A stretch of DNA of 64,000 bases from Solirubrobacterales bacterium (GCA_035605695.1 DATNGZ010000017.1:14454-78453); one strand, 5' to 3'. Shown: positions 7,862 to 64,000, numbered from the stretch's first letter. Numbers and translations are program-made. The notes: generated from the letters alone by a model not told the origin.

Positions 7862-7886
7862 AAAGGGCCCCGAAAGGGGCCCTTTT
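7862..7886. terminator. Strong bidirectional intrinsic-terminator-like hairpin with no assigned upstream gene
   Basis: The sequence is AAAGGGCCCC-GAAA-GGGGCCCTTTT: a 7-bp GC stem with a GNRA-type loop, flanked by an A-run on one side and a T-run on the other. Confidence 0.6.
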
Positions 7887-7961
7887 CCGTTCCGCTGGAG
7901 ACCCAAATGACAGCTATCTCTGTCGCCGACGACTGACTGGGCCGAATTTGGACTATGCGGC

Positions 7962-8552
7962 GTGCAAAATCCTCCCCCTTTCCCGCGTTTCCATACCGTG
8001 GACGCAGTCAGCCAGCAGGGGCAGCTTCTCGTCGGGCATAGATCCCCACAGGGCGCGCAGCCGGAACGGACGGCGCCCGGCGAAGCCAACAGCGAGCGGA
8101 AGCAGCGGATTTTCCGCCTGCCATTGCTTCGCGGTAGATCTGGGCTGACGCTTCCGCTCGATAGGGCCAGCCGAGACGAACGCGCCGAGGAGAGGGAGCG
8201 CGAAAAGCGGCTGGTCGCGGTCGAGGCAGCGGAGCAGGCTTTCTACCGGACGCCGGCGGGGCGGGCGCGGCTCGCCTACAGGCGAGGCCATCGCCTCTTC
8301 CAGTACGAACTTGAGATCAACGAGCTGCCGCCAACGGTTGTCCCGGGCCTGGCCGGCGCGCCCGCCCTGGTGACCACCGATCCGGTCGACATCCTCAACT
8401 CGGTGACGGTCGAGGGCTGGAAGCTGGTCACCGGAAAGTTCATCCACTCCGAGATGCGCAACGGAGCTGTCGGTTGCTACCTCTTCAAGCGCTCGCAGAA
8501 ACGCCGCCTCTCGATGAACAACCCCTGGCAGGACCCTCGCGTCGTCAGCTGA
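7962..8552 (+). CDS. Hypothetical protein (start uncertain)
   Basis: The C-terminal ~120 aa (AFYRTPAGRARLAYRRGHRLFQYELEINE...VEGWKLVTGKFIHSE...GCYLFKR) have coding-like high third-position GC. The N-terminal ~60 aa are low-complexity with rare codons (AGA, AGG). Alternative in-frame starts are GTG 7998 and TTG 8124. Confidence 0.5.
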   Translation: MQNPPPFPRFHTVDAVSQQGQLLVGHRSPQGAQPERTAPGEANSERKQRIFRLPLLRGRSGLTLPLDRASRDERAEEREREKRLVAVEAAEQAFYRTPAGRARLAYRRGHRLFQYELEINELPPTVVPGLAGAPALVTTDPVDILNSVTVEGWKLVTGKFIHSEMRNGAVGCYLFKRSQKRRLSMNNPWQDPRVVS

Positions 8553-8570
8553 GCACGCAGTTCGCCGCTC

Positions 8571-11676: not shown

Positions 11677-11747
11677 AGGCGCCCACCGGAATCGAACCGG
11701 TGTAAACGGCTTTGCAGGCCGCTGCGTAACCACTCCGCCAGGGCGCC
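11677..11747 (-). tRNA. tRNA-Cys (anticodon GCA)
   Basis: The reverse complement GGCGCCCTGGCGGAGTGGTTACGCAGCGGCCTGCAAAGCCGTTTACACCGGTTCGATTCCGGTGGGCGCCT is a 71-nt cloverleaf. The anticodon loop is CTGCAAA and the discriminator is U73, as expected for Cys. Confidence 0.9.
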
Positions 11748-13547: not shown

Positions 13548-14808
13548 GTACTTGGCCGTCGCCGTGGACGACGTACTTGTAGGTCGTCAGCTCGCGCAAA
13601 CCGATCGGTCCACGCGCGTGCAGCTTCTGGGTCGAGTTGCCGATCTCGGCCCCCATGCCGAACTCGAAGCCATCGGTGAAGCGGGTCGAGGCGTTGGTGT
13701 AGACGACGGCGGCGTCAACAGCAGCGGTGAAACGCTCCGAAGCCTCGGCAGACGCGCTGACGATCGCCTCCGAGTGTCCGGTGCCGTGAGCGTTGACATG
13801 GTCGATCGCCTCGTCGAGCGAGTCGACGACGGCAACGGCCAGCTTCAAGTCGAGGTACTCGGCGTCCCAGTCCGCGTCGGTGGCCGCGCCGACATCGACC
13901 CCATCCGCCAGCTCGCGCACCCGCTCGTCGCCGGCCAGCTCGACACACGCCTCACGCAAATCGGCCAGCGCCGCCGGCAGGAAGTCCGCCGCCACGGCTG
14001 CGTCAACCAGCAACGTCTCCGCGGCGTTGCAGACGCCAGGGCGCTGCGTCTTCGCGTTAACCACGATCCGCCGCGCCATCTCCAAATCGGCGTCGGCGTG
14101 CACATACACGTGGCAGTTACCGGCAGCGGCGTAGATCACTGGCACCGTGGCAACGTCCTTCAAAGCCCTCTTCAGTCCCTCACCACCACGAGGAATCAGC
14201 AGGTCGACCACGCCGTCCTGCGTCGCCAGCTCAGCCAAATCGCCATGCCCCTCGCCAACCGGCAGCAGCAGTACAGCGTCCTCCGGCAGTCCAGCCTCAG
14301 CAAGGGCCTCGCGTGCCACTCCAGCCAACGCAGCGTTCGACCGCTCCGCGTAGTGAGACCCCCGCAGCACAATCGCGTTGCCGCTCTTGACCGTCAGCGC
14401 CGCACAATCGATCGTCACGTTGGGCCGCGCCTCGTAGACAACAGCGACGACACCGAGCGGCACCCTCAGCTTCCGCAAGCTCAGACCGCTCTCCAGCGAT
14501 TTCGCTTCAAGCTCCTCGCCGATCGGATCCTCAAGCCCAGCAACAGCTCGGACGCCTTCGGCCATTCCCGCGATCCGCTCCTCAGTCAACGTAAGCCGAT
14601 CACGCAGCGCCTGGGTCAAGCCCGAAGCTCGTTCATCGGCGAGATCGGCGGCGTTGGCTTCGAGAATCTCCGCGGACCTCTCGCTCAGAAGGCGAGCGGT
14701 CGCCTCCAGCGCCGCATCCTTGGCCGCGGTCGAAGCACTCGCAAGCTCCCGAGCAACTCGCCGAGAGGCGACGCAGATCTCCCCAACGTTTCTAGTCGTG
14801 ACAGCCAT
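13540..14808 (-). CDS. proA: Glutamate-5-semialdehyde dehydrogenase (gamma-glutamyl phosphate reductase)
   Basis: 422 aa of the aldehyde dehydrogenase fold: NAAETLLVD, GAEIGNSTQKLHARGPIGLRELTTYKYVV. Confidence 0.95.
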   Translation of the reverse strand: MAVTTRNVGEICVASRRVARELASASTAAKDAALEATARLLSERSAEILEANAADLADERASGLTQALRDRLTLTEERIAGMAEGVRAVAGLEDPIGEELEAKSLESGLSLRKLRVPLGVVAVVYEARPNVTIDCAALTVKSGNAIVLRGSHYAERSNAALAGVAREALAEAGLPEDAVLLLPVGEGHGDLAELATQDGVVDLLIPRGGEGLKRALKDVATVPVIYAAAGNCHVYVHADADLEMARRIVVNAKTQRPGVCNAAETLLVDAAVAADFLPAALADLREACVELAGDERVRELADGVDVGAATDADWDAEYLDLKLAVAVVDSLDEAIDHVNAHGTGHSEAIVSASAEASERFTAAVDAAVVYTNASTRFTDGFEFGMGAEIGNSTQKLHARGPIGLRELTTYKYVVHGDGQVRE

Positions 14809-46347: not shown

Positions 46348-46692
46348 TTGACTCCCGCGCCGTTCAAAGTCCGCAGCGAGCAGAGGCAGGGCGTGTCGGT
46401 GATCCAGGTCGAGGGCGAGCTGGACATGAACACCGCGCCCGAGCTCGAGCGCCAGCTCGAGGCGCCCTTGTCGGCGCCGGACTCGAACCTGCTGATCGAC
46501 CTGAGCCGCTGTGAATTCATCGACTCAACCGGGATCGCCCTGATAGTCACGGCCTGGCAGGCGCTCGACGATCGCTTCTCGATCTGCGGGATCGGTGACC
46601 AGGTCAAGCGGGTGCTCGAGGTCACCGGGCTCGAGGCGACGATCCCGACCCACCCGAGCCGCGACGACGCGCTGGCCAGCCTGCGTGCCTGA
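46348..46692 (+). CDS. STAS-domain anti-sigma-factor antagonist (SpoIIAA-like)
   Basis: VIQVEGELDMNTAPELERQL...LLIDLSRCEFIDSTGIALIV...VLEVTGL. The DST(G) phosphorylation-site context is present. Confidence 0.75.
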   Translation: MTPAPFKVRSEQRQGVSVIQVEGELDMNTAPELERQLEAPLSAPDSNLLIDLSRCEFIDSTGIALIVTAWQALDDRFSICGIGDQVKRVLEVTGLEATIPTHPSRDDALASLRA

Positions 46693-46694
46693 GC

Positions 46695-47396
46695 TTGCGC
46701 CGCGCGCTGCTCACAGCCACCACCGTCGTCACCCTGGCTTTCTTTGGGCTCAGCGGCTCAGCTTCGCCGCGGGGCGGGATCATCTTGATCCGCGGCGATG
46801 ACTCGGGCTCGCACCTGCGCCTCAGCGTCAGCGACGGCCAGTTGCTGGTCAATGGCCACGAGACCGCGGACGGGCCGAGCGGCTGCCGAGTGGAGGCCGG
46901 CTACGGCGCCGTTTCCTGCCGCCTCGCCGAGGCCTCCTCGGTGATCGTCGAAATGGGCCCGGCCGATGACAAGGTCACCGTGCTGGACCCGCTGCCGGTA
47001 CCGCTGACCGCCTACCTCGGCTCCGGCTCGGACAAGCTGATCGGCAACGCTGAGGCGGACACCTGTTACCCGCAGGACTCGCCGCGCAACCGCTGCATCG
47101 GCGGCGCCGGTGACGACATCTGCATCTCGGGCCCGGACAACACCGACTGCGTCGGCGACACCGGCGATGATTACTGTCGGACGAGTGACGGCAGCGACGG
47201 CTGCTGGGGCGGGCCGGGGAAGGACGAATGCGTGATGGGCGCCGGCCAGGACGGCTGCCACGGCGATGGCGGCAAAGATCGCCTCTACGGCGGCGCCGGC
47301 GCCGACCAGCTCTACGGCGGCGGCGGCAACGACTACTGCGATGGCGGCCCGGGTCTCGGGCAGTCGCACGAGTGCGAGTCGGGTCCGCGCCGCTAA
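46695..47396 (+). CDS. Secreted Cys-rich protein with RTX-like GGxGxD nonapeptide repeats
   Basis: Has the signal-like N-terminus MRRALLTATTVVTLAFFGLSGSASP and the C-terminal repeats GGAGDDICI, GDTGDDYCR, GGPGKDECV, GDGGKDRLY, GGAGADQLY, GGGGNDYCD. The start is 2 nt after the STAS stop. Confidence 0.6.
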   Translation: MRRALLTATTVVTLAFFGLSGSASPRGGIILIRGDDSGSHLRLSVSDGQLLVNGHETADGPSGCRVEAGYGAVSCRLAEASSVIVEMGPADDKVTVLDPLPVPLTAYLGSGSDKLIGNAEADTCYPQDSPRNRCIGGAGDDICISGPDNTDCVGDTGDDYCRTSDGSDGCWGGPGKDECVMGAGQDGCHGDGGKDRLYGGAGADQLYGGGGNDYCDGGPGLGQSHECESGPRR

Positions 47397-48199
47397 GCCC
47401 GCGGGCGGCGCTCGCCGACCGCGTCGCCGAGGAAACGCTCGACCGCCTCGCCGGTCTCCACCGGTGACTCCCAGAGGACGTTGTGCCCGTTGGGAACGGT
47501 GGTCACCGTGAGCAAGTCGCCGAGAGCGTCCGAGTAGCGCGATTCCTGGGCGCCGTCCGGAGACAAGAGAGGGACCGCGGCGCGAATGATCAGGGTCGGG
47601 AGCCGCGCGATCGGCGGGGCCGGAAGCGCCATCTCACTCCAGGCGACGACCGCGGCGCCGGGACAGAAGCCGAAGCGGAAGCGCCCGTCGGGCCCCTTGC
47701 GAACGTCGCTCCGCACGTAGGCGGCAACCACCTCGCGCGGGGCGGCGACGACCGAATCACTGGAGAGAAGGGCGTTGAGCGCCCCGTCCGCGGTCGCGAA
47801 ATTCCAGTCGAGGCGATCGATTTCAGCACTTCGCAGCGCTGCCTCGGCCTCCACTTCGAGGCCGGGGTCGAGAAGGACGAGGCGGTCGCTGCGCTCCGGT
47901 ACCCGCGCGACGGCCTCGGCCACGAGCCGACCGCCGAAGCTGTGCCCGACCCAGCTCGCCCGCTCCACCCCCGCGGCGTCCAGGGTCTCGATCAGATCGT
48001 CCACGTGGGTAGCGCTGTCCCAGGGAGGCACCCGACCCGACTCGCCATGCCCGCGCAGATCGACCGCGAGGACCGAGTGGCCCGCGGCAACGAGGCGCTT
48101 TCCCAGGCCCTCAAACACCCCGCCGTGCTGGGCCACCCCGTGCACGCAGACGACGGACTGCGCTCCCGGCGGCCCCCAGCGGTGGGTCTTCAAGACCAT
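47393..48199 (-). CDS. Alpha/beta-fold hydrolase
   Basis: Contains VVCVHGVAQHGG (HG oxyanion), the GHSFGG nucleophile elbow and a C-terminal His (PNGHNV). It is the last co-directional gene after the PKS-MT-ccr run. Confidence 0.8.
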   Translation of the reverse strand: MVLKTHRWGPPGAQSVVCVHGVAQHGGVFEGLGKRLVAAGHSVLAVDLRGHGESGRVPPWDSATHVDDLIETLDAAGVERASWVGHSFGGRLVAEAVARVPERSDRLVLLDPGLEVEAEAALRSAEIDRLDWNFATADGALNALLSSDSVVAAPREVVAAYVRSDVRKGPDGRFRFGFCPGAAVVAWSEMALPAPPIARLPTLIIRAAVPLLSPDGAQESRYSDALGDLLTVTTVPNGHNVLWESPVETGEAVERFLGDAVGERRPRA

Positions 48200-48222
48200 T
48201 CTCTACGTTCCCCCATCGTTCG

Positions 48223-49461
48223 CTATACCCGGATCGCGCCGGGTCCGTCTTCCCTGCGCCCCGCGTCCTCGGACTCGGCCCCGACCAGGATCGCGATCTT
48301 GCCGAGGTGCTTGTTTTCGTACAGCAGCTGGTGTGCCTCGGGGATTCCCTCGAAGTCCATCGTTCGCCAGAGCACCGGCCGGATCTTGCCCTCGGCCATT
48401 AGCTGGTTGGCCTGCATCGCCTGATAAGCGTTGGCTCCGTGCGAGCCGATGATCTGCTTCTGGCGCATCCACAGGTAGCGCACGTCGAAGTCGAGCTGGA
48501 AGCCCGTCGTGGCGCCGCAGATCACGACTTTGCCGAAGGGCTTGCAGACGAAGACCGAGGTCGGGAAGGTCGCCCGGCCGACGTGCTCGAAGACGATGTC
48601 GGGGGCGTCGCCGAGGATCTCCTTGACCCGCTTGGCGAAGCCGCGCGAGGCCTTGAAGCGCTCCTTGTCCTTGGCGGGATCGGTGAGGTTCTCCGAGGTC
48701 CGCATCATCTCGCCGAACTCGGCCCGGTTGATGTAGTCGACCGCGCCGAGCTGCTTGACCAGCTCGCCCTTCTCGTCGGAGGAGACGACGCCGACGGCGT
48801 TGGCGCCGGTCGCCTTGCAGAGCTGGATCGCGAAGACACCGAGGCCACCGGCCGCGCCCCAGATCAGCACGTTGTGGCCGGGCTGCAGCTTGCACTGGTC
48901 GATCAGCATTCGGTAGGCGGTGAAGTAGGCGAGGCCGTAGGAAGCGGCCTCGGCCCATGAGGTGTTCTGCGGACGCGACAGCAATTGCTGGGCCTGCACC
49001 TTGGTGAACTGGGCGAAGGAGCCCCAGGTCGTCTCGTAGCCCCAAGCTTTGACGGTCGGTGCGGCGAGCGGGTCGAACCCGTGCACCTCTACGTCCTCGT
49101 AGGAAACCTGGGCGGTGTGCATAACCACCTCGTCGCCCGGCTTCCAACGGGTGACGCCCTCGCCGACCTTCCAGACGATCCCCGAAGCGTCGGAGCCACC
49201 GATGTGGTGGCCGTACTCGGGGTGGTCGCCGTAGCCGAAGACCGAGACCGGTTTGCCCAGCGCCGCCCAGACGTTGTTGAAGTTGACGCCCGCGGCCATC
49301 ACCCGCACGATCACCTCGAAGGGACCCGGCTCGGGTACCTCGATCTGCTCGAGCTGGAAGGCGTCGTTGGGCTCGCCCTCGCGCTCCTGGCGGATCACCC
49401 AGGCTGCCATTGTCTCCGGCAGTGTTCCGGGCTCGACGTCCAACTTCGCGATTGCGTTCAT
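48223..49461 (-). CDS. ccr: Crotonyl-CoA carboxylase/reductase (CCR-type enoyl-thioester reductase)
   Basis: WGYETTWGSFAQFTKVQAQQLL, VLIWGAAGGLGVFAIQL, PDIVFEHVGRATF and LWMRQKQIIGSHGAN match the CCR subfamily rather than generic MDRs. The ATG at 49461 has GGAGG 8 nt upstream. Confidence 0.85.
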   Translation of the reverse strand: MNAIAKLDVEPGTLPETMAAWVIRQEREGEPNDAFQLEQIEVPEPGPFEVIVRVMAAGVNFNNVWAALGKPVSVFGYGDHPEYGHHIGGSDASGIVWKVGEGVTRWKPGDEVVMHTAQVSYEDVEVHGFDPLAAPTVKAWGYETTWGSFAQFTKVQAQQLLSRPQNTSWAEAASYGLAYFTAYRMLIDQCKLQPGHNVLIWGAAGGLGVFAIQLCKATGANAVGVVSSDEKGELVKQLGAVDYINRAEFGEMMRTSENLTDPAKDKERFKASRGFAKRVKEILGDAPDIVFEHVGRATFPTSVFVCKPFGKVVICGATTGFQLDFDVRYLWMRQKQIIGSHGANAYQAMQANQLMAEGKIRPVLWRTMDFEGIPEAHQLLYENKHLGKIAILVGAESEDAGRREDGPGAIRV

Positions 49462-49462
49462 C

Positions 49463-50236
49463 TCAGCGGCCTCCATTGACCTCATCCGGCTTTCGCGCCG
49501 AGAGGAATTGCCCCCGCCGCACCACTCGCTGATCGATATCGACAAGGCCGTGCTCGCGAAACCACTCGGCCAACTCGCCGCGCGCAAAGACGGTCACACC
49601 GCCCCGCACACTGCGCGGCCGGCCCTCGGGCGCGCAGCTGGCGACGACCGCCAACCGTCCCCCGGGCGCAAGCACCCTGACCATCTCGCCGAGGGCGAGC
49701 ATCGGCTTCTCGATCAGGTGAATCACGCCAACGCTGCAGGCGGCGTCGAAGGTGCCGTCACCGAAGGGAAGCGCACAGGCATCCGCCCGCAGGTAGCCGG
49801 CGTTGGCCGGGCTGCCACGCTTCGCCGCCGCGGCGACCATCGCTCCCGAGGCGTCGATCCCCACCACCAACCCGCTGCCCGAGGCCGCAGCCAAAGCCCG
49901 TGTGTAGTTTCCGGGCCCGCAACCGACATCGATGACACGGTTGCCTGGCGATACCCCTAGCATCTCGAGCGTCAGGCGCTTCTCTTTGGCCGCGCCGGGT
50001 CCGCGAAGGCCGAAGAAAACGCGGGAGACGAGCGGCCGCCACAGTCGCTCGTACACAAACGCGAGCAGCTTTTTGTGAAATACCTGCTGTCCGCGGTGGG
50101 GGCCAATCGCATCGCGATCGGCCAGTAGGTCGATGTACCCGTCCGTGGCCTGTGGAAACACACCCTTACTTCCCGTCCTCAGCAGGCTGACCATTTCCCT
50201 CATCCCAGTTGAAGAATCCTGCCCCTGGTTATTCAC
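49463..50236 (-). CDS. Class I SAM-dependent methyltransferase
   Basis: Has motif I VIDVGCGPGNYTRAL and the post-I acidic residue VVGIDAS, then FDAACSVGVIHL. Confidence 0.85.
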   Translation of the reverse strand: MNNQGQDSSTGMREMVSLLRTGSKGVFPQATDGYIDLLADRDAIGPHRGQQVFHKKLLAFVYERLWRPLVSRVFFGLRGPGAAKEKRLTLEMLGVSPGNRVIDVGCGPGNYTRALAAASGSGLVVGIDASGAMVAAAAKRGSPANAGYLRADACALPFGDGTFDAACSVGVIHLIEKPMLALGEMVRVLAPGGRLAVVASCAPEGRPRSVRGGVTVFARGELAEWFREHGLVDIDQRVVRRGQFLSARKPDEVNGGR

Positions 50237-50249
50237 AGTATGAACCTTA

Positions 50250-53200
50250 TCATTTTGCGAACTCCGCTGTGTTTAGTTTTACACACATCTTGTCAAGCAC
50301 ATTTCTCACCGCTTCCGCCGTCTCCGCAGCGTGCTCGGTCATCATGGTGAAATGGTTGCCCGGCGTCTCCACCACCGCCTCTGAGGGCTCCCACGATGCT
50401 CGCCACTCGCCCCCGCCGCCGCCCGCCAGCTCCCATGCCGGCTCGCGGGCCCGAACCAGCACGGTGGGGACGTCGAGCACCGGCGGCCGCCAGTCGCCGA
50501 AGATCCTCCGGTAGGCGCCCAAGGCGATCAGACGGGCGTCGTCGATCCTCATCTCACCCGCCTCGACTCCCTGCGCTGCCGCCAGCATTGCCGGCAGCAT
50601 TTGGCTCAGCAAAGGGGAATCGGGGAGGTAGGTATCGAGCAGGAGCACGGCGCTAGGAGGCGCGCCTATAGCCGCCAGGCGATCGGCGATCGCGTGCGCG
50701 AGCCACCCCCCGGAGGAGTGCCCCCCGAGAACGAACTCGGGGCCCACGTCGGCCTGCAGAATCGCGTCCGCCTGCGCCTCGATTGCGGCGCCGGCGCTCT
50801 CCGGCAATGGCTCACCCTGGGTGAACCCCCAGAGTGGAAAAGTGAACACCGGCCGAATTTCACGAAAGCCGCGTGCCAATTTTACGTACTCATGCGGACC
50901 GGACATCGGCCCTACCGAGGGAATCAGGATCAGGCTCGAATCGGTTTCACCATCGGCAAGGCGCACCGGCCGGAGACTTCCCTCGGCTTCGGCGGATGTC
51001 TCAAAGGAGGTGTGAAACCGCGATGCGCTGCTCAACAGCTCGACGAAATCATCCAACTCGTCTCTTTCATATGCCCGTCCGAGCAGCGATACGAATGAAA
51101 TGTCACGGTGAACGCCATCGGCGGCAGCGGAACCCTCCCCCCCGGCCGTTGCATCATCGGCGCCTTCCCTGACCTGTTTCAGCAGGTACCTAGCGATGCC
51201 CGCCGGGGTGGGGTTGTCGGCCAGCGCCAGGATCGGCAGCGCTATCCCGGTCGAGGCGGTGAGACGATTGCGAAGCTCCACCGTGCCCAGCGAGTCGAAG
51301 CCCAGTTCCTGCAGGATCTGGTCGGCGCCCACCTCGTCGTTGGACCCGTAGCCGAGGATCGCCGCAGCCTGGCCGCGAACCAGCTCGAGCACCACCGCTT
51401 CCTGTCGGTCCTCCGCCACTCCCTGCAGACGCGCCCGCAGCGAACCCGTCTCCGGCTTGAGCTCGACCCTGGCGCCAACCAGGCCGCTCAGCACCGCGGG
51501 CAGCATTCGGGCCTCGGCCTGCGCCCGCAGCGCGGCCCGGTTGAAGGCCACCGGCGCCAGCAGCGGGGCATCATCCGAACAGGCGAGATCGAAGAGCTCC
51601 AGACCATCCTCGGGCAGGACCGCGGCGATGCCGGTCCGTTCCAGCCGCGCCCGGTCGACCTCGCTGAGCGCCTCGATCAAGCTGGTCTCCTGCACCCAAC
51701 CCCCCCATGCCATCGAGGTTCCCGGTAGCCCCTGCGCCTGGCGGTGGGCTGCAAGGGCGTCGAGGAAGGTGTTGGCGGCGGCGTAGTTGGCCTGGGCGGC
51801 GCTTCCGATCAGGCCGCTCACCGAGGAGAAAACCACGAAGCGGGAAAGATCCAGGTCCTTGGTCAGCTCGTGCAGGTGCCATGCGGCATCGACCTTGGGG
51901 CGCATCACCCGGTCGAGCCGATCCCCGTCAAGGGAGTCGATCACCCCGTTGTCGAGCACCGCGGCGGAGTGGATCACCGCGCCCAGCGGCCACTGCGACG
52001 GAATCGAGTCGAGCAGGGCTTCCAGCTCGGTGAGATCGGAGACGTCGCAGGCGGCGACCGTCGCCTCCGCGCCCAGGGCGGCGAGCTCGGCGACGAGGTC
52101 GTCGGCTCCGTCCGTCGCGGCTCCACGTCGGCTCACCAGCAGCAGCTGGCGCACGCCATGGGCCTCCGCCAGATGACGCGCGACGGCAGCGCCGATGCCG
52201 CTGAGGCCTCCGGTGATCAGCACCGTCTTCTCGGGATCGAACGACGGCCTAGCTTCCCCCTCCGGCTCGGCGATCCGAGCGCGGGCTATCCGCGGAGCCG
52301 AGATCTCGCCCTTGCGAATCGCCAGCTGCGGCTCCGCGTCCGCGGCGCGAAGGGCGGCGCCCAAAGCGCGCGAAGACTCGGGAGCGTCGTCGACGTCGAT
52401 CACCGCGAAGCGCCCGCTGTGCTCGGAGCGGGCCGAGTGAACGAGACCCCAGATCGGGGCGATCTCGAGGTTGGGCCGGTCGCCTTCGGCGACCGCAACG
52501 GCCTCCTTGGTGAGAAACGTGAGCCGAGCATCGCCGAGCGGGCCCGCCGCGATCCATGCCTTGGCGAGATCAAGCGCCCGCAGCGCCCGCGCCCTGGCCT
52601 GCGCGGCAAGGTCGGCGCCGTCGTCGCGCCCGGACCGGAAGCCGACGAGAACCGCCTCGGGAACGGGGGCGCCGGCCTCAACCGCCTCGATCAGGGCGGC
52701 GAGGTCCGGGTAGCGATCCGCGTCTAGATCGCCGCAGTCGTCGTCTCCGACTATCGCCACAGAACCGATCCCGGTCCCCGGCGGGGGCTTGAGCGCATGC
52801 CAATCGACCCGGAAGAGCGATTGCTTTCGGCGGGCGGCCTTGACCTGTGCCCGATCGACCGCACGCGGCCGCACCGAGTCGATCGAGAGCACCGCCTCGC
52901 CGCTCTCGTCGACCGCGCTCAGGGTTATTTCGCCGTTCTCGCCGGCTGCCCGAACCCGCAACGCGGCCGGGGACCGCTTTGTTAGGCGAGCCCCACGCCA
53001 GACGGCGGGCCAGCTCGGCCCGGCTGCATCGCGCCCACCCGGGACAAGCTCGAGCGCCGCGCGGACCGCCGATTCGAGCAGCGCTGGATGAACCCCGAAG
53101 CCGGCCGCGGCGTCCTCCTGTGCCTCCCCGACCGAGACCTCGAGCAGCACCTCCTCGCCATCGCGCCAGGCCGAGCGCAGGCATCGGAGGGCGGGGCCGT

Positions 53201-56200
53201 ACTCGAAGCCGGCCTCGGCCAGGCGGTCGTAGACGAGCTCAACGTCGAGCTCTTCCGCCCCCGCCGGTGGCCAGGACTCCGCCTCCCTCGCCCACGGCTC
53301 GACAACGCGCTCGACCCCTTGACCCAGAACGCCGACGGCGTGGCGCACCCACTGCTCCGGCTCGGGGTCCTCCCGCTCGCCCTCGAGCCGGGAGTGGACG
53401 GCGAGGACGCGTTTGCCCTCGAGCGGCTCGTCGATGCCGATGCGGATCTGCACCGCGCCCGAGTCGGGCAGCGTCAGCGGCGCCTCCAGGGTGAGCTCCT
53501 CCACTCCCTCGACCCCGATCGCGGCGGCGGCGGCGAGCGTGACCTCGACCAGGGCGGAGCTTGGCACGGCCGCCTCTCCAAGCACCTTGTGATCGGCCAG
53601 CCAAGGGTGGCTGGAGCGCGAAAGCCGGCCGCTCAACTGCAGGCGCTCGTCGTCGGGGAACTCGATCGTCGCCCCGAGCAGGGGGTGAGCGGCGTCACCG
53701 AGACCCGCGGCGCCGGCGTCACCGGCCGTGGCAGTGGACTCGAGCCAGAGGCGGCGACGCTGAAACGGATAGGTGGGCAGGGTTACCGGCCGCGCCTCGG
53801 CGCCATCGAAGAACGACCCCCACTCGACGTCGACCCCGGCCGCATGAGCTTCCGCCAGCGAGCGGGCGAAGCGATCGCCGCCGCCTTCGTCGCGACGCAG
53901 CGTGCCGAGCACCGCGACCGAGTTGGGATCGCCGGTCGCCGCCTCCAAAGTCTGCTGCAGGCCGACGGCCAGGACAGGATGCGGGGAAACCTCGACCAGC
54001 GCCTGAATATCCCGGTCGATCAAGCGTCGGACCGTCGGCTCGAGCAGCACCGTGTGGCGAGCGTTGCGATACCAGTAGGCCGCGTCGAGCTCAGCGGTGT
54101 CGAGCAGCTCCGCCGTGACCGTGGAGTAGAAGGGAGTCTCCCCCGAGCGCGGGGAGATCGGCGCCAGCGAGTCGAGCAGCTCCTCGCGCAGCGACTCGAC
54201 CTGCGCTGAGTGCGAAGCCACGACCGTGCCGGGGACCTTTCTCGCCCGCACGCCTTCGGCCTTGCACTCGGCGACCAGTTCTTCCAGCGGCTCGACCTCG
54301 CCGGAGACGACGGTCGCCGCGGGGCCGTTGACGGCGGCCAGCTCGAGCTCACCGCTGCGGCGCCGCAGGCGCGGCTCGAGCTCGGCGGCGGGCAGCGCAA
54401 TCGACGCCAGCGAGCCCAGTCCGAGCAGTCGACGCAGGGCCTTGTTTCGAAGCGCCGCCACCCGCGCGGCATCGTCCAGGGAGAGGCCGCCGGCGATGTG
54501 CGCCGCCACCACCTCGCCCTGCGAGTGACCCGCCACCGCGGCCGGCTCGACCCCGCACGCCCGCCACAGCTTCGCCAGGGAGATCATGATCGCGAAGAGC
54601 ACCAGGGAGCTGACGTCGGTGTCGCTCAACGGCGGCGATCCCTCGGACCCGCGCAGGACGCCCTCGATCGACCACTCGACGTAGGGCTCCAGCGCTTCCT
54701 GGCATTGGCCAATCTGCGTGGCGAAGAACGGCGAGGAACCGAGCAGCTCCACCGCCATCCCATCCCACTGCGAGCCAAAGCCCGGGAAGAGGAAGGCCGG
54801 TCGCCCCTCGCGGCGAGCGACCCCGCGCCAGGCGGCCGTCGCTTCCCCTCCTTGAGCCAGGGTCGCAAGCTGCTCGGTGAGCTCCGCACGATCCGCCGCC
54901 AGCGCCACCGCGCGGTGCTCGAAGCGCGGCCGCATCGTCGCCAGCGAGAAGCCGACGTCCAGCGGCTCCAAATCGGGCCGGGCCTCCAAGTGCGAGGCCA
55001 GCTGCGCCGCGGAATCGCGCAGGGCCGCCTCCGTTTTGGCCGAGATCACGATCGGGGTCACGCCGGGAAGCGGCGGGGACGAAGCATCGGCCTCGTCTGC
55101 CTCGTCGAGGCCGCCCTCCTCGGCAGGCGCCTGCTCCAGAATCAGGTGCACGTTCGTGCCGCTCACCCCAAACGAGGAGACCGCGGCGCGGCGCGGCCGC
55201 TCGTCGACCTCCCACGGCTCCGCCTCGGCGAGCAGCTCAATCGAGCCCGAGGACCAGTCGATCTGGGAGGAGGGGTGATCAGCGTGAAGCGTCTTGGGCA
55301 GAACTCCGGCCTGCATCGCCATCACCAGCTTGATCACGCCGGCGGCACCCGCCGCAGCGGCGGTGTGGCCGATGTTGGACTTGACCGAACCCAACCTCAA
55401 CGGCCTCTCCCGGTCCCGGCCATAGGTGGCGAAGAGCGCCCCTGCCTCGATCGGGTCGCCAAGCGGGGTGCCGGTGCCGTGGGCCTCGACCAAGTCGATC
55501 TCTTGCGGCGCCAGCCCGGCGTTGGCCAGGGCTTGGCGGATCACCCTCTCCTGGGAAGGGCCGTTGGGAGCGCTGAGACCGTTGGAGGCCCCGTCCTGGT
55601 TGATCGCCGACCCGCGCACGACGGCAAGGACGCGGTGGCCGTTGCGGCGAGCCTCCGAGAGGCGCTCGAGGACCAAGACGCCAACGCCCTCCGAGAAGCC
55701 GGTGCCGTCGGCGCCCTCGGCGAAGGCCTTGCAGCGCCCGTCCGGGGCAAGCCCGCGCGAGCTGTTGAGGTCGACGTGGCCGACCGGGGTGCACATCACC
55801 GCGACCCCGCCGGCCAGCGCCAGCGGGCACTCGCCGCCCCGCAGCGCCTGGATCGCGAGGTGCATCGCGACCAGCGAGGAGGAGCAGGCGGTGTCGACGG
55901 TCATCGCCGGGCCCTCGAAGCCGAAGCTGTAGGAGACCCTTCCCGAGACGACGCTGGACGAGGTGCCGACGATCAACGCCCCGGCGCCCGCTGACGCGGC
56001 GATCACGGCCGGGGCGTAGTCGGAGGTCCCGGCCCCGGCGAAGACGCCGGTCTGGCTTCCTCGCAGCCCGCGGGGATCGATCCCCCCGTATTCGAGCGCC
56101 TCCCAGGAGGCTTCCAGCAGGAGTCGCTGCTGGGGGTCGATCAGCAGCGCTTCGCGCGGGCTGATCCCGAAGAAGACCGGGTCGAAATCGGTGGCGCCCT

Positions 56201-56504
56201 CGACGAAGCCGCCGTCGCGAACGTAGGTGGTGCCGACGTTGTCGGGATCGGGGTCATAGAGCCGCTCCAGGTCCCAGCCGCGATCGGCCGGGAAGGGCGA
56301 GATCGCATCGGTCCCACTCGCCACCAGATCCCAGAGCCTCTCTGGTGTGCTCGCCCCACCGGGGTAACGGCAGCCGATGCCGACGATCGCGATCGGCTCG
56401 TGGGCGCTGCGCTCGAGCTCTCGCACGCGGCGCCGGGCCTTGCGCAGGTCGACCGCCGCCTTCTCCAGATACTCGCGAAGCTTCGCCTCGTCAGTCATCG
56501 CCAA
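50250..56504 (-). CDS. Type I modular polyketide synthase, terminal module: KS-AT-DH-KR-ACP-TE
   Basis: KS: [30 protein letters not shown]: GHSQGE (54513..54530), VASH (54210..54221). DH: HPLLG / [15 protein letters not shown]: [30 protein letters not shown]: [15 protein letters not shown]: [12 protein letters not shown]. An N-terminal docking-like helix is present. Confidence 0.95.
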
Positions 56505-59500
56505 TCTCCTCGTCGATCAGGGCAAACACCTCGTCGTGCGACATCGAGGTGAGGTCGTCCGTCGCCGCCTCGTCCTCCTCGGCCTCGGCCGCGGACATCT
56601 CGGCCAGGGCGGAGCGCAGTCGCATGCCGATCCGCTCCCGCACCCCGCGGTCGTCGTCAAGCCCGGCGAGCTTCGCCTCCAGCCCCGCCAGCGCCTCCTC
56701 GACTTCAACCTCCGGGCTCTTGGCCCCACCCTGCGCCGCCACCTCGGCGACGAGATAACCGGAGAGCGCCGCGGGAGAGGGATAGTCGAAAGCGAGGGTC
56801 GGCGGAAAATGCATGCCGGTGGCGGCCGTAAGGCGGTTGCGCAACTCAACCGCGCCCAGCGAGTCGAAGCCGAGCTCGAGGAAGGCCCGCTCGGGATCCA
56901 CCTCCTGGCCGGAGCTGTATCCGAGCACTGCGGCGACGTGATCGCGAATCAGTTCCAAAACCAGGGCCGGGCGCTCCGCCTCGGCCACTCCCGCCAGCAG
57001 CTCCGCGAGCGAGCCCTGCTCGCGGCGTGAATGCACGGAGACCTTGACCAGATTCCGCATGACCGGGGCGAGGACACCTTCGCGCGCCTGAGCGCGCAGT
57101 CCCGAAGTGTCGAGCTCAATCGGCATCAGCAGCGACTCCTCGCGCCCACGGGCGCGGTCGAAGAGCTCGAGAGCGCGAGCCGGCGACAGCGCCGCCATGC
57201 CGGCGCGCCCGAGGCGAGCGCGAGCCGCATCAGTCAGCTCCTCGCCGGCCTCGCCCAGGTCGGTCAGGCCCCAGGCGAGCGCGGCGGCGGGCAGGCCGCC
57301 GGCGCGCCGATAGGCGGCGAGGCCATCGAGGAAGGCGTTGGCGGCCGCGTAGTTGGCCTGCCCCGCGCCGCCGATGACGCCCGCGCTCGAGGAAAAGAGC
57401 AGGAACTCGGAGAGCTCCAACTCCGCGGTCAGCTCATGCAGGTTCCAGGCCGCATCGACCTTCGGCCGCATCACCCGCTCAAGCCGCTCGGGGTCGAGCG
57501 CAGCGAGGATGCCGTCGTCGAGGACGCGGGCGGCGTGAACCACGACGGCCAACGGGTGCTCGGGCGCGATCGAGCCGAGCAGCGCTCGCAGTTGCTCGCG
57601 ATCGGCCGGATCGCAGAGCTCGGCGCGAACCTCGCAACCGAGCTCCTCCAGCTTTGCCTTCAGCTTCGCCGCCGCTGAAACCTCGGCTTCGTCGACGCAG
57701 GGCAGCAGCAGGTTGCGAGCGCCGTGCTCCTCGACCAGGTGAGTCGCGACAAGGGCGCCGAGGGCGCCGGAGCATCCGCTGACGAGCACGGTGCGGGTGG
57801 GGTCGAGCGCCGGTGGCGCAGCCCCCTCCTCATCGCTGGCGCGGACCAGCCGCGGCGCCAGGATCCTGCCCTCACGAATCGCCAGCTGTGGCTCATCCGC
57901 GGCGAGCAGAAGCGCCGCCGGCAAGCACTCGCGTGAGCGCTCTGAGTCGTCGAGGTCAATCAGCGCAACGCTGTCCGGATGCTCGGCCTGGGCCGCGCGC
58001 ACCAGCCCCCAGACCGGCGCCGCCGCGAGGTCGGGTGCTTCCTCAGAGCCCAACGCAAGGGCCCCCTCGGTCAGTAGCGCCGGTCGGGAATCCGCGGGCT
58101 GCTCCCGAGAAATCCATCCCTGCAGCAGCTCGAGCGCGCGCTCGGCCGCCGCCTGGGCGGCCCTTGACGGCGACTCCGACGCCGGGGTCAAGGCGCGCAA
58201 GTCCTCGACGACGAAGGTGGGTTCGGCCGCTTGGGGGTCGAGGGGCGCGTCGATCTCAATCCACTCCAGCCGCAGCAGCGAGCCGCCGCCGGAGCGGGCG
58301 CCGCCCGGCAACTGCTGCGGCGCGATCGGGGCGGAGACGAGGCCCCGGGCCGAGCCAATCGGCACGCCGTCGCCATCGGCGAACTCGAGGCAAAGGCCGT
58401 CCTCGCCGTGCCGCGCGGCACAGACCCGCAGCACGGTCGTGCCGCTCGGCGCCAGCGAGGTGAGGCCGGCGGCAGCGGGCATCTCGCCCTCCCAGTCCGC
58501 CTCCCCGCCGGCAAGAGCCGCAAGCTGGAGCGCGCCCTGCAGCAGGCCGGGGTGCAGCGAAAACTTCGTGGCCTGCTCGATCTGCTCGTCGGCAAGGGTG
58601 AGCTCGGCGTACACCGCGTCGCCCTCCCGCCAGGCCGCCGTGAGGGTCTCGAAGGCGGGGCCGAGCTCGATGCTGCGCTCAGCCAGGCGGTCGTAGACGT
58701 CCTCGACATCGAGCGGCGTGGCGTCAACGGGCGGCCACTCGCCCAGCGAGCGTCGCGAGGCCGGCCCCGCGAGGCTCAGAGCGCCCTCGGCATTGCAAGA
58801 CCAGGCCTCGCCCACTCCTTCCAGGTCGTCGGGGCCAGGCTCCGACCGCGAGTGGATCGAGATCGCTCGCGAGCCTTCGGCGCCGGCCTCGGCAACCGCC
58901 ACCTGAATCTGGACAGCGCCCTGCTCGGGCAAGAACAGCGGCTCGCGCAGCTCCAATTTTTCAATCACCTCGCAACCGGCCTGCTCGCCCACCCACAGCG
59001 CCAGGTCGAGAAAAACCCCGGCCGGCACCAGCGCCGCACCGGCGAGGCGATGCTCGGCCAGCCAGGGATGGGACGAGAGGGAGATGCGACCCGTAAGCAG
59101 CAGCTGCTCCCCGACCGCGGTGGAAAGCGAGGCGCCGAGCAGCGAGTGCTCGGCGCCGGCCTGGCCGATTGCGCGCGGGTCAGAATCGCTCGCCGCGGGC
59201 GGCAGCCAGTAGCGGCTGCGCTCGAACGCGTAGGTCGGCAGCGTCACCGCCCCGGCATCGGCCCCGCCGAAAAGGGTGGCCCAGTCGAGGGCGGCTCCGT
59301 GCGCGTGCGCTTCGGCCAGGGAGATCGAGAACCGCTCCGGGCCGCCGTCCTCACGGCGCAAGGTGCCGAGCACGGCCGCCCTTGCGCCCGGCAGGGCATC
59401 GTCGATCGTCTCGTGCGTGCCGAAAGAGAGGACCGGGTGGGGCGCGATCTCGAGGAAGCTGCGCCGCCCTTGCTCAAGCAGAGAGCGGATGACCGGCTCG

Positions 59501-61926
59501 AAGAGCACCGGCTCGCGCAGGTTGCGGTACCAGTACTCCGGGCCGAGCCCGGCTGTGTCCAGCGCCTCCCCGGTCACGGTCGAGTGGAAGGGAATCGTGC
59601 CGTTGCTCGGCGAGATCGGGGCAAAGGCCTCGGCCAACTCGTCGTGCAGCGCGTCGATCTGAGCAGAATGGGCGGCGTAGTCCACGGCGACGGTCTGGGC
59701 TCGCACGCCTTCGCGCTCACAGGACGCCGCGAGTTCGGCGAGGGCGCCGGGCTCGCCCGAGACGACGAGCGAGGAGGGTCCGTTGATCGCGGCCAGCGAG
59801 ATGCGCTCTTCGAAAGACTCCAGCCGCGCGGGCAGCTGCGAGACGGGGAGCGAGACCGAGAGCATTCCGCCCTGGCCCGAGATCTTCGCCATCGCCTTGG
59901 CGCGCAGGGCGACGACCCGGGCCGCGTCCTCGAGCGAGAGGCCGCCGGCGATATGGGCGGCGGCGATCTCGCCCTGCGAGTGACCGACTACCGCGGCGGG
60001 CTCGACCCCGAGCTCGCGCCAGAGCTCCGCCAGCGAGACCATCACCGCGAAGAGCGCCGGCTGCACCACGTCGAGACGACCGAGCCAAGCGTCCGAGCCG
60101 CGCAGGGTTTCCTCCAGGGACCAATCGACGAACGGGGCGAGCGCCTTTTCGCAGGCCCGCATCCGACCGGCGAAGAACGGCGAGGAATCAATCAGCTCCA
60201 CCCCCATGCCCTTCCACTGGGAGCCCTGGCCTCCGAAAAGGAAGACCGGCCGGCGCTCGGCGGCGGCGACCGCGGTGATGACGCGGCCGCTCGCTTGGCC
60301 CGCAGCGAGCGACTCAAGCGCCTCCAGCGCGCGATCGCGGTCCTTCTCGACCACAACGGCGCGGTGCTCAAAGCTCGTCCTGGTGGTTGCGAGCGAGCGA
60401 CCGACAGCGGCGAGGTCGAGGTCGGGATTCGCGCGCAGGTGGGCGGCGAGGCGCTCTGCCTGGCCGCGAAGGGCAAGCTCGGACCTTGCCGAGACCGGCA
60501 GCAGGACCGGGCCCGCGAGAAGCCGCTCACCCGCCCCTCCACCGGGCAAATCGCTTTCATCCGCCCCGACGGCGGGCGCTTCCTCGAGGATCACGTGAGC
60601 ATTGGTGCCGCTGATGCCGAAGGAGGAAACCGCGGCGCGGCGGGGCCGCTCGCCCGCAAGCCAGGGCTCCGCCTCGGTCAAGAGCTCGATCTCCCCCGCC
60701 TCCCAGTCGACTTTCGAAGAGGGGCTGTCGACGTGTAGCGTCCGCGGCAAAAGACCTTCCTGCATCGACATCACCGCCTTGATCACCCCGGCTACCCCCG
60801 CCGCCGCCTGGGTGTGGCCGATGTTCGACTTGACCGAACCGAGCTTCAGCGGCCGCTCCCTGCCCTGGCCGTAAGTCGCGAGCAGCGCCCCCGCCTCGAT
60901 CGGGTCGCCCAGGGCCGTGCCCGTGCCGTGGGCCTCGATCGCGTCGACGTCGTGCGGGCTGAGGCGGGCGGCGGCGAGGGCCTCTCGGATAACCCGCTCC
61001 TGGGACGGTCCGTTGGGGGCGGTGAGACCGTTGGAGGCGCCGTCTTGGTTGACAGCGGAGCCGCGGATGGTAGCCAGGACCCGCCGCCCGTTTCGCTCGG
61101 CGTCGGAGAGCCGTTCGAGCGCGAGCACGCCGACACCCTCGGCCCAGCCGACGCCATCGGCGGCCTCGGCGAACGACTTACAGCGGCCATCGGGGGCAAG
61201 GCCGCGCTGACGGCTGAAGAAGATCAGCGGATTCGGCGTCGAGAGCACGGTGACCCCGCCCGCCAGCGCCAGCGAGCACTCCCCGCCGCGCAGGGCCCCG
61301 GCGGCGAGGTGCATCGCGACCAGCGAGGAGGAGCAGGCGGTATCAACCGTGATCGCCGGCCCCTCAAGGCCGAGGGCGTAGGAAACACGGCCGGAGACAA
61401 CGCTGCTGGTCATGCCCGGGACGATTCCGAAGTCGGCCGCACCGTATTCCTGCGACATCACGCCGGCAAAGACTCCGACCGGCGTGCCGCGCAGCGCACG
61501 GGGATCGAGGCCGGCCCTCTCCAGGGCCTCCCAGGCGGCTTCCAGCAGCAAGCGTTGCTGGGGGTCCATGACCTGGGCCTCGCGGGGTCCGATGCCGAAG
61601 AAGCCGGGGTCGAACTCGGCGACGTCGGCGACGAAACCGGCACCGCGGGCGTAACAAGTACCCGGCCGGTCGGGGTCGGGGTGGTAGATGCGATCCAGGT
61701 CCCAGCCGCGGTCGCGGGGGAACTCGCCGATCGCGTCACGGCCCTCCTCGACCAAGCGCCAGAGCTGCTCGGGAGAACCGACCCCGCCGGGGTAGCGGCA
61801 GCTCATTCCGACGATCGCGATCGGCTCCCTGGAGCGATATTCCAGCTCAGCCACGCGACGGTTGGCGCCGCGCAGGTCAACGGTGAGCTTCTCCAGGTAT
61901 TCGCGCAGGCGCGTCTCGTCGCTCAC
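56491..61926 (-). CDS. Type I modular polyketide synthase, extension module: KS-AT-DH-KR-ACP
   Basis: KS: [30 protein letters not shown]: [26 protein letters not shown] (59968..59985), YAAH (59668..59679). DH: [15 protein letters not shown]: [29 protein letters not shown]: [13 protein letters not shown]. The C-terminal tail [17 protein letters not shown] is docking-like. Confidence 0.95.
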
Positions 61927-64000
61927 GACGCTCCGAACTCCTCGTCGATTAGCTCGAACATCTCCTCGTGCGACATCGAGGCAAGGTCCTCCCCCTCGCC
62001 GCCCGGCGACTCCGAGAGATCCGCCAGCAGCGCTCGCAGACCGTCGCCGACCCGGTCCCGCAGCCGCTCGTCCGCCTTCAGCGCGGGCAGCATCGCGGCC
62101 AGCTCGGCAAGGGCCACCTCCGCGCCGCCGGCGCCGGCGCCCTCGCCTCCCGATCCGAGCTCGGAGGCCACCTGGTCGAGCAGGTACCGGGCGACCGCCG
62201 TCGTCGAGGGGTGGTCAAAGACCACGGTCGGCTGCAGCCGCAGCCCGGTGGCGGCGTTGAGACTGTTACGCAGCTCGATCGCCGCCAGGGAGTCGAAGCC
62301 GAGATCCATGAAGGCGGCCTCGGGATCGACCTCGCCGGCGGAGGCGTAGCCGAGCACGGCGGCGACATGACCGCGAACCAGATCGAGCACTACCCCCTCA
62401 TGCTCGGCGGCGGGCACTCCTGCCAGCCGTGCAGCCAGCGACTGCCGCTCGCGGGGGGCACGGGCCGGGCCGGCCAGGCCGGCGAGGACCGCGGGCAGCG
62501 TCCCGGCGGCGACCTGGGCGCGCAGGCCGGCGGCGTCGAGAGCAATGGGCGCCAGCAGGGGCTCCGCGCGCAGGCAGGCGGCGTCGAAGAGCTCAAGCCC
62601 GAGCTGCGGCGGGAGCGCCGCCAGCCCGAAGCGCCGAACCCGGCCGATGTCCGCCTCGCTGAGACCACCGGTCATCCCCGTCGCCTGCGCCCAGGCGCCC
62701 CAGGCGAGCGAGACCGCGGGCAGGCCGGCGGCAGCGCGATGCGCTGCAAGCGCGTCGAGAAAAGTGTTGGCGGCCGCGTAGTTCGACTGGCCCGGTGTGC
62801 CGAGGATCCCGGCGGCCGAAGAGAACATCACGAAATGGGAGAGCTCGATCCCCGCGGTCAGCTCGTGCAGGTGCCAGGCAGCGTCCAGCTTCGGCGCCAG
62901 GACCCGGTCGAGGCGCTCGGCGTCGAGCGAGGCGAGCAGCCCGTCGTCGACCAGGCCGGCGCTGTGAATCACGGCGCCGAGCGGGCGCTCGTCGGGGATC
63001 GAGTCGAGCAGGGCGCTCAGCCGGGCGCGATCAGAGACGTCACAGGCAACCGCGGTCGGCTCGGCGCCCAGGCCGCGCAGCTCCTCGAGCAGCTCGCTCA
63101 CTCCCTCAGCCTCGGGCCCGCTGCGGCTGACCAGGAGCAGGTGTCGAGCGCCGTGCTCGGCGGCGAGGTGGCGGGCCAGGAGGGCGCCGAGGCCGCCGGT
63201 GCCGCCGCTGATCAAAACCGTAGCGCCGGGATCGAATCGCGGCCCGTCGTCGTCGCACTCGTCAGTCCCGGCCCAGGCCAGGCGCGGCGCCATCGCCCTG
63301 CCCGCGCGCAGGGCGATCTGGGCCTGGGAGGCCGTCGCCGCAAGCGCGGTCGGAAGCGCCTGCAGAGAGGCAGCCTCACCGTCGACGTCGATCAGCCCGA
63401 AGCGATCCGGGTGCTCGGAGCAGGCCGATCGCAGCAGCCCCCAGACGGGGGCGGAGACGAGGTCGGGGCTCTCTCCGGGGACGACCGCGACGGCGCCGAC
63501 GGTCTGAATGCAGAGACGGCTTTCGCTCAGCCGCTCCTCGGCGAGCCAAGCCTGCAGCAGCTCGAGCACTCCGCCGACGCAACGATGCGACCGCTCGGCG
63601 ACGCCGCCATCGCCGCCGGCGTCCGCGGCGATTGCCGCGAGGACGAGCTCGGGGACCTCCGCGCCGCCGTCAATCGCCTCGAGCAGGGCGGCGAGATCGG
63701 CGTGCCGCTCAGCGTCGAGCGCGATGCCCGGCGCGTCGCCGAGGATCGCGAGGCGGGCGGGCTGTGAGCCGTTGACCGAGCCGACGCCGGCATCCACCCA
63801 CTCGAGGTGGTGCAGCGGCAAGCGCCGGCGCGGCAGATGCGCTCGCTCGAGCGGGCGAAGGACGAGCGAATCAACCGAGACGACCAGCTCGCCACTCTGG
63901 TCGAAGGCGACCATGCCGCCCCCGCCCTCCCCTTGCTTAATCCGCGCCCGCAGGCTCGATGCCCCGCTGGAGGAGATCCGCACACCGCCCCAGATGAAGG
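61923..64000 (-). CDS. Type I modular polyketide synthase, C-terminal part of a module (end of DH, KR, ACP); 5' end lies outside the window
   Basis: KR: [29 protein letters not shown]: [13 protein letters not shown]. The docking-like tail is [17 protein letters not shown]. The reading frame stays open to the window edge. There is a 4-nt overlap with the next PKS gene. Confidence 0.9.

Follow-up and report, generated by a model that had tools for sequence, protein, structure and literature searches.

Probable 3′ end of a cis-AT modular type I polyketide synthase cluster, with an adjoining carboxylase/reductase gene, in a Solirubrobacterales bacterium

Modular type I polyketide synthases (PKSs) of the kind represented by the DEBS and pikromycin enzymes share a domain grammar of ketosynthase (KS), acyltransferase (AT), optional dehydratase (DH), ketoreductase (KR) and acyl carrier protein (ACP), with a Cys-His-His set in the KS, a GHSxGE motif in the AT and class-1 docking helices (PF08990). 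The same features recur in a locus at one end of a 64,000-nucleotide stretch of DNA from a Solirubrobacterales bacterium (GCA_035605695.1, DATNGZ010000017.1:14454-78453; the whole stretch is called ‘the window’ below). Six co-directional genes on its minus strand, 47393..64000, encode three PKS proteins (PksA, PksB and PksC), a methyltransferase, a crotonyl-CoA carboxylase/reductase (CCR) and an alpha/beta-fold hydrolase. Judged by its sequence, the system qualifies as a cis-AT modular type I PKS like DEBS and the pikromycin enzyme, and we read the region, with a probability of roughly 0.8, as the 3′ end of such a cluster, made up of the last three extension modules together with tailoring and precursor-supply genes.

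The likeness extends to the terminal thioesterase (TE), which is most similar to those of DEBS and pikromycin (E ~1e-43), and to the DH and KR domains, which align over their full length with EryDH, RifDH10 and the SpnB and DEBS KRs. The locus differs from DEBS and pikromycin in its host, a member of the Thermoleophilia (Solirubrobacterales), in its terminal AT motifs (GFGSQ/VASH compared with GQGSQ/YASH) and in a penultimate module whose DH is dead and whose KR lacks the NADPH-phosphate arginines. The CCR is of the same family as CinF (2-octenoyl-CoA, cinnabaramide; PDB 4A0S) and AntE (antimycin). It has the CO2-pocket residues and, like CinF, Ala at the first of two acyl-pocket sites, with Gly at the second, where AntE has Val, and it directly adjoins a PKS with a small-residue specificity motif in its AT. 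Overall it is closer to 4GI2 and AntE than to CinF.

Identity to PKSs from cultured organisms is about 45–55% over the full length. PKSs in general share as much, so no close characterised relative came to light. A full-text literature search found no paper on a characterised polyketide or PKS product from Solirubrobacterales or Thermoleophilia, and any product would thus be new chemistry from an uncultured soil lineage. As the biosynthetic logic is textbook and the cluster is incomplete here, the value of the locus is as a genome-mining lead, not as a new mechanism. Its points of modest interest are a conserved chromosomal position, a linkage between CCR pocket and AT motif, and an altered cofactor site in the penultimate KR that is likewise conserved, none of which is unprecedented in principle.

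Gene order and domain content of the PKS

The six genes and their domains are listed here in the order of transcription, with the SpnB-type structural KR subdomain written as psiKR.

61923..64000, running past the window edge, minus strand: 3′ part of PksA, DH tail–psiKR/KR–ACP (translation, Pfam)
About 62688..63638 and about 62181..62381, minus strand: PksA psiKR/KR and ACP; the C-terminal tail ends ...[17 protein letters not shown] (translation, Pfam)
56491..61926, minus strand: PksB, 1811 aa, N-terminal docking helix–KS–AT–DH–psiKR/KR–ACP–C-terminal tail (Pfam, alignments)
60730..61827, 59293..60246 and 58447..59148, minus strand: PksB KS, AT and DH
57262..58170 and 56752..56952, minus strand: PksB psiKR/KR and ACP
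50250..56498, minus strand: PksC, 2082 aa from the ATG at 56498, docking helix–KS–AT–DH–psiKR/KR–ACP–TE (Pfam, alignments)
55281..56399, 53826..54794 and 52845..53687, minus strand: PksC KS, AT and DH
51696..52808, 51183..51383 and 50307..50900, minus strand: PksC psiKR/KR, ACP and TE
49463..50194, minus strand: class I S-adenosylmethionine (SAM)-dependent methyltransferase, 243 aa by the public gene call (Pfam Methyltransf_11/25)
48223..49461, minus strand: CCR/ECR-family enoyl-CoA carboxylase/reductase, 412 aa (TIGR01751, PDB alignments)
47393..48199, minus strand: alpha/beta-fold hydrolase, 268 aa, nucleophile elbow GHSFGG (Pfam)

The three PKS open reading frames (ORFs; 50250..56504, 56491..61926 and 61923..>64000) contain zero internal stops. 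The PksA stop and the PksB GTG start overlap as GTGA (61926..61923), the start of PksC (ATG, 56498) and the stop of PksB (56491) have 8 nt in common, and the PKS genes are translationally coupled. An initial annotation of the window had placed three co-directional minus-strand PKS ORFs with overlapping junctions at these coordinates, followed in the same orientation by a SAM methyltransferase, a CCR and an alpha/beta hydrolase; the frames and junctions, together with Pfam and NCBIfam matches for the small genes, bear this out. The public gene call is shorter than the longest ORFs for both the methyltransferase (whose longest ORF begins at 50236) and the CCR, and these shorter starts are more likely than those of the ORF list.

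PksA continues beyond the window. A 33-kb metagenome contig in the European Nucleotide Archive, k141_149118, is identical to the window from position 34494 on and extends 3686 nt past the window edge; it was the sole contig found with the exact proteins. On this contig (L001) PksA reads [ACP]-KS-AT-DH-KR-ACP, with AT motifs GHSVGE/HAFH, and across window and contig three consecutive modules are visible in series, terminated by the TE. Because the ACP of a preceding module is fused before the KS, PksA has at least two modules, as has a colinear orthologue of 3582 aa described below, and the earlier view of one module per protein falls. The same annotation credited the third gene with a full KS-AT-DH-KR-ACP set, of which Pfam finds just the DH tail, KR and ACP inside the window. 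A 100% identical PksA in NCBI starts exactly where the copy on k141_149118 does; the contig ends inside PksA in both, so that the cluster is cut by an assembly break and not by the window edge alone. Upstream modules had been expected beyond position 64000, and the gene does continue there, but the source contig stops after about 3.7 kb more.

Pfam identifies ketoacyl-synt, Acyl_transf_1, PKS_DH_N/PS-DH, the SpnB-type structural KR subdomain, KR and PP-binding in PksB and PksC, with Thioesterase in addition in PksC; E-values across the domains range from 1e-10 to 1e-93, so chance matches are not an issue. Both proteins have an integrated AT (Acyl_transf_1 E = 5e-80 and 8e-93). The KS Cys-His-His motifs DTACSSS, EAHGTGT and KSNIGHT are found in PksB, PksC and the last PksA module (ketoacyl-synt E = 6e-92), GHSxGE and the downstream xxxH motif in the ATs of all three modules, and GFDSL in the PP-binding domain of each. 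The Ser-Asp-His of the PksC TE is in register with that of the DEBS and pikromycin TEs, and all KS, AT, ACP and TE catalytic residues are intact. No enoylreductase (ER)-type domain was found by Pfam in the PKS proteins, as the initial annotation had said of the visible modules; the terminal thioesterase with GGHSSGG that it described is also there.

The N-terminal helix of PksC matches the docking family PF08990 at 27.8 bits, above the cut-off of 20.9, and that of PksB at 20.0 bits, just below it; by sequence, class-1 docking helices begin both proteins. For the C-terminal docking domain PF09277, whose cut-off is 24.6 bits, the PksB tail reached 12.9 and the tail of PksA gave no match. Docking pairs had been proposed from the terminal strings LREYLEK..VDLR and MSH(D/E)E.F.LIDEE. 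Both strings are present in the translations, and the N-terminal half of the proposal agrees with PF08990, but the C-terminal tails fall below every Pfam docking threshold, and the conserved MSH(D/E)E.F.LIDEE ending is suggestive only as a docking signal.

The Rfam family ASpks (RF01782), which represents an antisense small RNA of M. tuberculosis and has a gathering score of 52 bits, matches twice, at 55380..55448 (+) with 52.7 bits and at 60829..60897 (+) with 54.3 bits. Each match is exactly antisense to the conserved KS-coding stretch EAHGTGT..GDPIE, of PksC and PksB respectively. Conservation of the coding sequence is the simplest explanation for both, and they are not evidence of a small RNA.

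The reductive domains were aligned to solved structures. The last PksA module has the DH His, YGP Tyr and Asp, and its KR has the Gly-rich motif, the basic residues and Lys/Ser/Tyr. In the PksB DH the His of HxxxGxxxxP is kept, the Tyr of YGP is Leu and the catalytic Asp is Gln, the stretch [10 protein letters not shown] aligning with HPVLLDAVAQ of EryDH. The PksB KR retains Lys/Ser/Tyr and LDD, with SGCSGALG for TGGTGALG, HAAR for HAAG and PCVDE for VSRRG; by this last change acidic residues stand in for the arginines that bind the 2′-phosphate of NADPH. In the PksC DH, His and YGP are conserved but the catalytic Asp is Glu; the KR of PksC is intact ([12 protein letters not shown], Lys/Ser/Tyr, LDN). 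The initial annotation had called the catalytic motifs intact. That stands for DTACSSS, EAHGTGT, KSNIGHT, GHSQGE, HxxxGxxxxP, GFDSL and GGHSSGG, which are all present, but not for the Asp and Tyr of the PksB DH, the NADPH site of the PksB KR or the Asp of the PksC DH; in view of these same changes, the visible part would not simply build the unsaturated chain that had been expected.

Such substitutions may be read as the first signs of pseudogenisation in a decaying cluster that makes no product. The altered PksB DH and KR and the Asp-to-Glu change in the PksC DH would fit this, as would the frequent death or deletion of the terminal reductive loop in related loci (L159, L161, L162, L164 and L097). 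We nevertheless consider decay quite unlikely. The frames of 5.4 and 6.3 kb are stop-free, the KS, AT, ACP and TE residues are intact, and the overlapping start and stop codons are kept; inactive reductive domains are, moreover, common in working PKSs. The substitutions also recur in a 70%-identical orthologous cluster, L166, where the PksB-type DH has Gln for Asp and has also lost the catalytic His, the PksB-type KR (14180..14725) has CTGSEE, with no arginines, and HATR, and the PksC-type DH has Glu for Asp. The changes are thus not recent lesions but old and maintained. The PksB KR alteration, in particular, looks maintained on this comparison, and possibly reflects a different cofactor preference or a non-reducing role.

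Conservation of the locus in related genomes

The rest of the window is a block of core genes: RNase E/G, PBP2, MreB, a FolC-like ligase, ValS, ClpX, ClpP, a PAS-GGDEF protein, trigger factor, a spermine-synthase-like protein, CtaG and a GH15 hydrolase. Annotation of this remainder agrees with the initial annotation in leaving the PKS as the sole accessory system. Scans of GTDB representative genomes and JGI metagenomes gave no copy of the source genome, the best matches being 64–71% identical, and the related contexts compared were L097, L159, L160, L161, L162, L164/L168, L165 and L166.

Homologues of the alpha/beta hydrolase are abundant in Solirubrobacterales metagenome data (68–82% identity), and the hydrolase adjoins the PKS in all ten related Solirubrobacterales contigs that carry both a PKS-TE and the hydrolase. 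The order in relatives is PKS-TE, usually a methyltransferase and a CCR, then the hydrolase; the methyltransferase is absent in L161 and of another family in L097. GH15 and CtaG lie downstream in the nine contigs with a visible flank, followed by tig-clpP-clpX where the locus extends, and the L166 locus ends at the hydrolase. In L165, unrelated genes stand between the hydrolase and GH15 while the PKS, methyltransferase, CCR and hydrolase genes remain contiguous, which speaks for grouping the three small genes with the PKS.

Whether the cluster is a genomic island or a conserved locus had been raised by the initial annotation, and the related contigs show it to be lineage-conserved: order and flanks are the same in relatives, so this is not a strain-specific island. 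Recent acquisition would be in keeping with a GC content of 70–74% across the PKS genes, compared with 64–70% in most of the window, and with the lone accessory character of the PKS there. High GC is, however, expected from the Ala/Gly/Arg-rich composition of PKSs, no integrase, transposase or tRNA lies at the cluster boundary, and the shared order and core flanks persist in relatives whose proteins are just 65–90% identical, which makes a recent island highly improbable. The locus appears instead to have been vertically inherited in the lineage, diversifying module by module, and its conserved position combined with module-by-module variation offers a natural series for the study of assembly-line, CCR-pocket and AT co-evolution.

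Protein boundaries vary among the relatives, and the terminal KR is absent or without Tyr/Lys in five of them. The terminal modules are as follows.

L162: KS-AT-ACP-TE
L159: KS-AT-DH-ACP-TE
L161, L164 and L097: KR dead
The window, L160, L165 and L166: KR intact

Split PKS ORFs occur in relatives at L162 3556..5458, L167 18508..23723 and L168 17784..17800 (with, for example, KS, AT fragment and ER-KR-ACP separate). These are probably assembly indels and not gene fission, and protein boundaries at those places need caution.

L166 (ERZ25039555 contig_726) resembles the window in order and boundaries throughout, with a bimodular PksA, PksB, PksC-TE, methyltransferase, CCR and hydrolase. PksA and PksB are each 70% identical to their L166 counterparts, PksC 68% and the methyltransferase 72%, and the L166 PksA orthologue, 3582 aa long, has an N-terminal docking domain. 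L166 differs from the window in having two CCR copies, one Phe-type and one Gly-type (see below).

A second cluster, on ERZ25039520 contig_12474 (L164/L167/L168), is visible whole apart from a gap of about 4 kb. It shares with the window the flank of hydrolase, GH15 and CtaG, to which L164 adds tig, clpP and clpX, but its modules are fused and split differently, its terminal KR is dead and its CCR is Phe-type. The gene order is PucR-like regulator, metallophosphoesterase, phosphopantetheinyl transferase (PPTase), PKS, TE, methyltransferase, CCR and hydrolase. The PKS, of about 43.9 kb, comprises a KSQ loading module (VDAAQSSS, with Gln as the active-site Cys replacement) and seven extension modules, one of them with an ER. 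Its 3618-aa bimodular protein, the next module and the TE module correspond in order to PksA, PksB and PksC. By analogy with this cluster, the assembly line of the source genome would have about eight modules, and its product may be a medium-sized, partly reduced, branched polyketide.

Another relative, L163, carries a regulator, phosphoesterase and PPTase that are 67–80% identical to their contig_12474 counterparts. At 4345..9769 it encodes a carboxyltransferase, a PPTase, a FAAL-ACP didomain and an Rv2949c-like chorismate pyruvate-lyase, a starter gene set that recalls p-hydroxybenzoate priming in mycobacterial phenolic glycolipid synthesis; PKS proteins of 3284 and 12241 aa come next. We rejected L163 as a model for the starter unit of the present genome, as its downstream end is out of view and its PKS is much larger, and kept it as evidence of variable loading. 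Two loading strategies thus contrast within the family, KSQ on the one hand and FAAL-ACP with chorismate pyruvate-lyase on the other, and both starter choice and module number vary.

Extender-unit motifs, the CCR and the small genes

The AT motifs of the three visible modules, with the extender type that they indicate, are listed by module.

PksA last module: GQGSQ / GHSVGE / HAFH, malonyl type
PksB: GQGSQ / GHSQGE / YAAH, methylmalonyl type
PksC: GFGSQ / GHSQGE / VASH, unusual

The terminal AT has G[F/Y/H]G[S/A]Q together with VASH, AASH, GASH or APSH in every CCR-bearing locus, and the canonical GQGPQ/GHSQGE/YAAH in L097, the sole relative without a CCR. This covariation ties the CCR to the last module. 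Small residues in the xxSH motif are typical of ATs for exotic alkylmalonyl units, such as VASH in divergolide AT4 (PMC6490886); VASH alone is an ambiguous signal, since methyl-, ethyl- and methoxymalonyl ATs have it too (PMC7327777).

The first of the terminal AT motifs is unusual in its own right: in the terminal ATs of all CCR-containing relatives (L159–L166), Phe, Tyr or His takes the place of the Gln in GQGSQ, a motif that is otherwise nearly invariant. We know of no described role for this replacement.

The CCR passes the NCBIfam equivalog model TIGR01751 with 485.9 bits against a cut-off of 378.55. Its stretches NFNN, WGYE and GSH align with those of CCR structures, and the CO2-pocket residues are all present as Asn, Tyr at the Phe position, Glu and His. 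The roles of these residues have been described, and an F170Y variant remains fully carboxylating (PMC6628652). At a first acyl-pocket site, before WGYE, the window CCR has Ala, as does CinF (4A0S), where the crotonyl enzymes 4GI2, 6OWE and 3HZZ have Ile. At a second, after GSH, it has Gly, where the crotonyl enzymes 4GI2, 6NA3 and 3HZZ have Phe and the promiscuous AntE has Val. In the work of Quade et al. in 2012, CinF reportedly has Gly at this second site as well, and this is consistent with the published CinF/KsCcr numbering. Among orthologous CCRs (81–91% identical) the first site is always Ala and the second Gly, Ala or Phe. From these pocket residues we infer that the product of the CCR would be an alkylmalonyl-CoA with a longer chain than that of ethylmalonyl-CoA.

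In two relatives the CCR gene occurs in tandem with unlike residues at the second site, Phe and Ala in L161 (7472..9971) and Phe and Gly in L166 (22501..24928). The second L166 copy is called as a hydrolase fusion of 697 aa, perhaps owing to a frameshift in long-read assembly.

The CCR and the hydrolase might alternatively be housekeeping genes of the tig-clpP...GH15 block, with the CCR serving an ethylmalonyl-CoA-type pathway. Their conservation in relatives is in line with this, at 81–91% for the CCR and 65–82% for the hydrolase, far above the PKS domains or the methyltransferase, and the best PDB match of the CCR, 4GI2, is named just ‘crotonyl-CoA carboxylase/reductase’. Yet the neighbourhood has no mutase, epimerase or dehydrogenase of such a pathway, and the contiguity of PKS and small genes survives the insertions before GH15 in L165. 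The second pocket site switches between Gly, Ala and Phe in near-identical CCRs, the gene is duplicated in L161 and L166, and the terminal AT motif co-varies with the presence of the CCR. In the more distant L147 and L149 the hydrolase again adjoins a PKS, there at the PKS start. A housekeeping origin for the two genes is on balance unlikely, and we favour their membership of the PKS cluster.

The methyltransferase falls below every NCBIfam cut-off, and its PDB matches span just the generic methyltransferase core. Its orthologues in syntenic loci are 55–72% identical, and its substrate is not predictable from this generic class I similarity. The hydrolase matches Abhydrolase_1/6 and Hydrolase_4 alone in Pfam; its nearest structures, matched over the N-terminal half with E-values from 1e-14 to 1e-10, are the esterase YbfF and 3QIT (a chain named just ‘Polyketide synthase’). 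Two roles were considered and rejected. A type II (editing) thioesterase was set aside with PF00975 unmatched, although some orthologues have a weak PF00975 match. BioC/BioH-like masking by a methyl ester, with the methyltransferase and hydrolase acting as a pair, was set aside on scores of 46 against 185 and 49 against 207 bits, far below the equivalog cut-offs.

Proposed chain assembly and neighbouring features

In the biosynthesis that we propose, the chain would pass from PksA to PksB to PksC and be released by the TE through hydrolysis or lactonisation. The last PksA module would add malonate, reduce it with a B-type LDD KR and dehydrate it with its complete DH, leaving a trans double bond. 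PksB would add methylmalonate without dehydration, giving a beta-hydroxyl or beta-keto group beside the methyl branch, depending on the altered KR. PksC would add a unit with a side chain larger than methyl and reduce the beta-keto group, after which dehydration may or may not occur; its extender would be an alkylmalonyl-CoA supplied by the adjacent CCR from a 2-enoyl-CoA longer than crotonyl-CoA. The methyltransferase and hydrolase may act on the product or on intermediates.

Several points weigh against this account. The stronger conservation of the CCR, compared with 40–84% per domain in the PKS, could mean that the enzyme also, or only, serves primary metabolism. VASH is shared by methylmalonyl- and methoxymalonyl-specific ATs (PMC7327777), and the PksC extender assignment is not secure. 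With Glu for Asp the PksC DH may or may not be functional, and the PksB KR may no longer bind a cofactor. Finally, only three of about eight modules are available for this genome, too few to assign a product class.

A pyrone-forming terminus, with two non-reducing last modules and an O-methyltransferase, was prompted by the relatives that have lost the terminal KR or DH; it was rejected for the window, where the PksC KR looks fully intact. A broader and rather doubtful proposal is that a PKS beside tig-clpP-clpX has been vertically inherited and has diversified in loading, in the reductive loops of the last two modules and in the CCR pocket with its non-canonical AT, yielding alpha-alkyl-branched polyketide lipids or signals that serve the physiology of the lineage; its penultimate KR would then be NADH-using or purely epimerising.

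Elsewhere in the window are a tRNA-Val(GAC) at 7592..7664 (-) and a tRNA-Cys(GCA) at 11677..11747 (-), both distant from the cluster boundary, so that neither marks an integration site. Between the hydrolase and GH15, at 46348..46692 (+) and 46695..47396 (+), lie genes for a STAS-domain protein and a small Gly/Asp-rich protein with RTX-type calcium-binding repeats, and the RTX-type repeat and STAS proteins are conserved (65–81%) in several, though not all, of the syntenic relatives.

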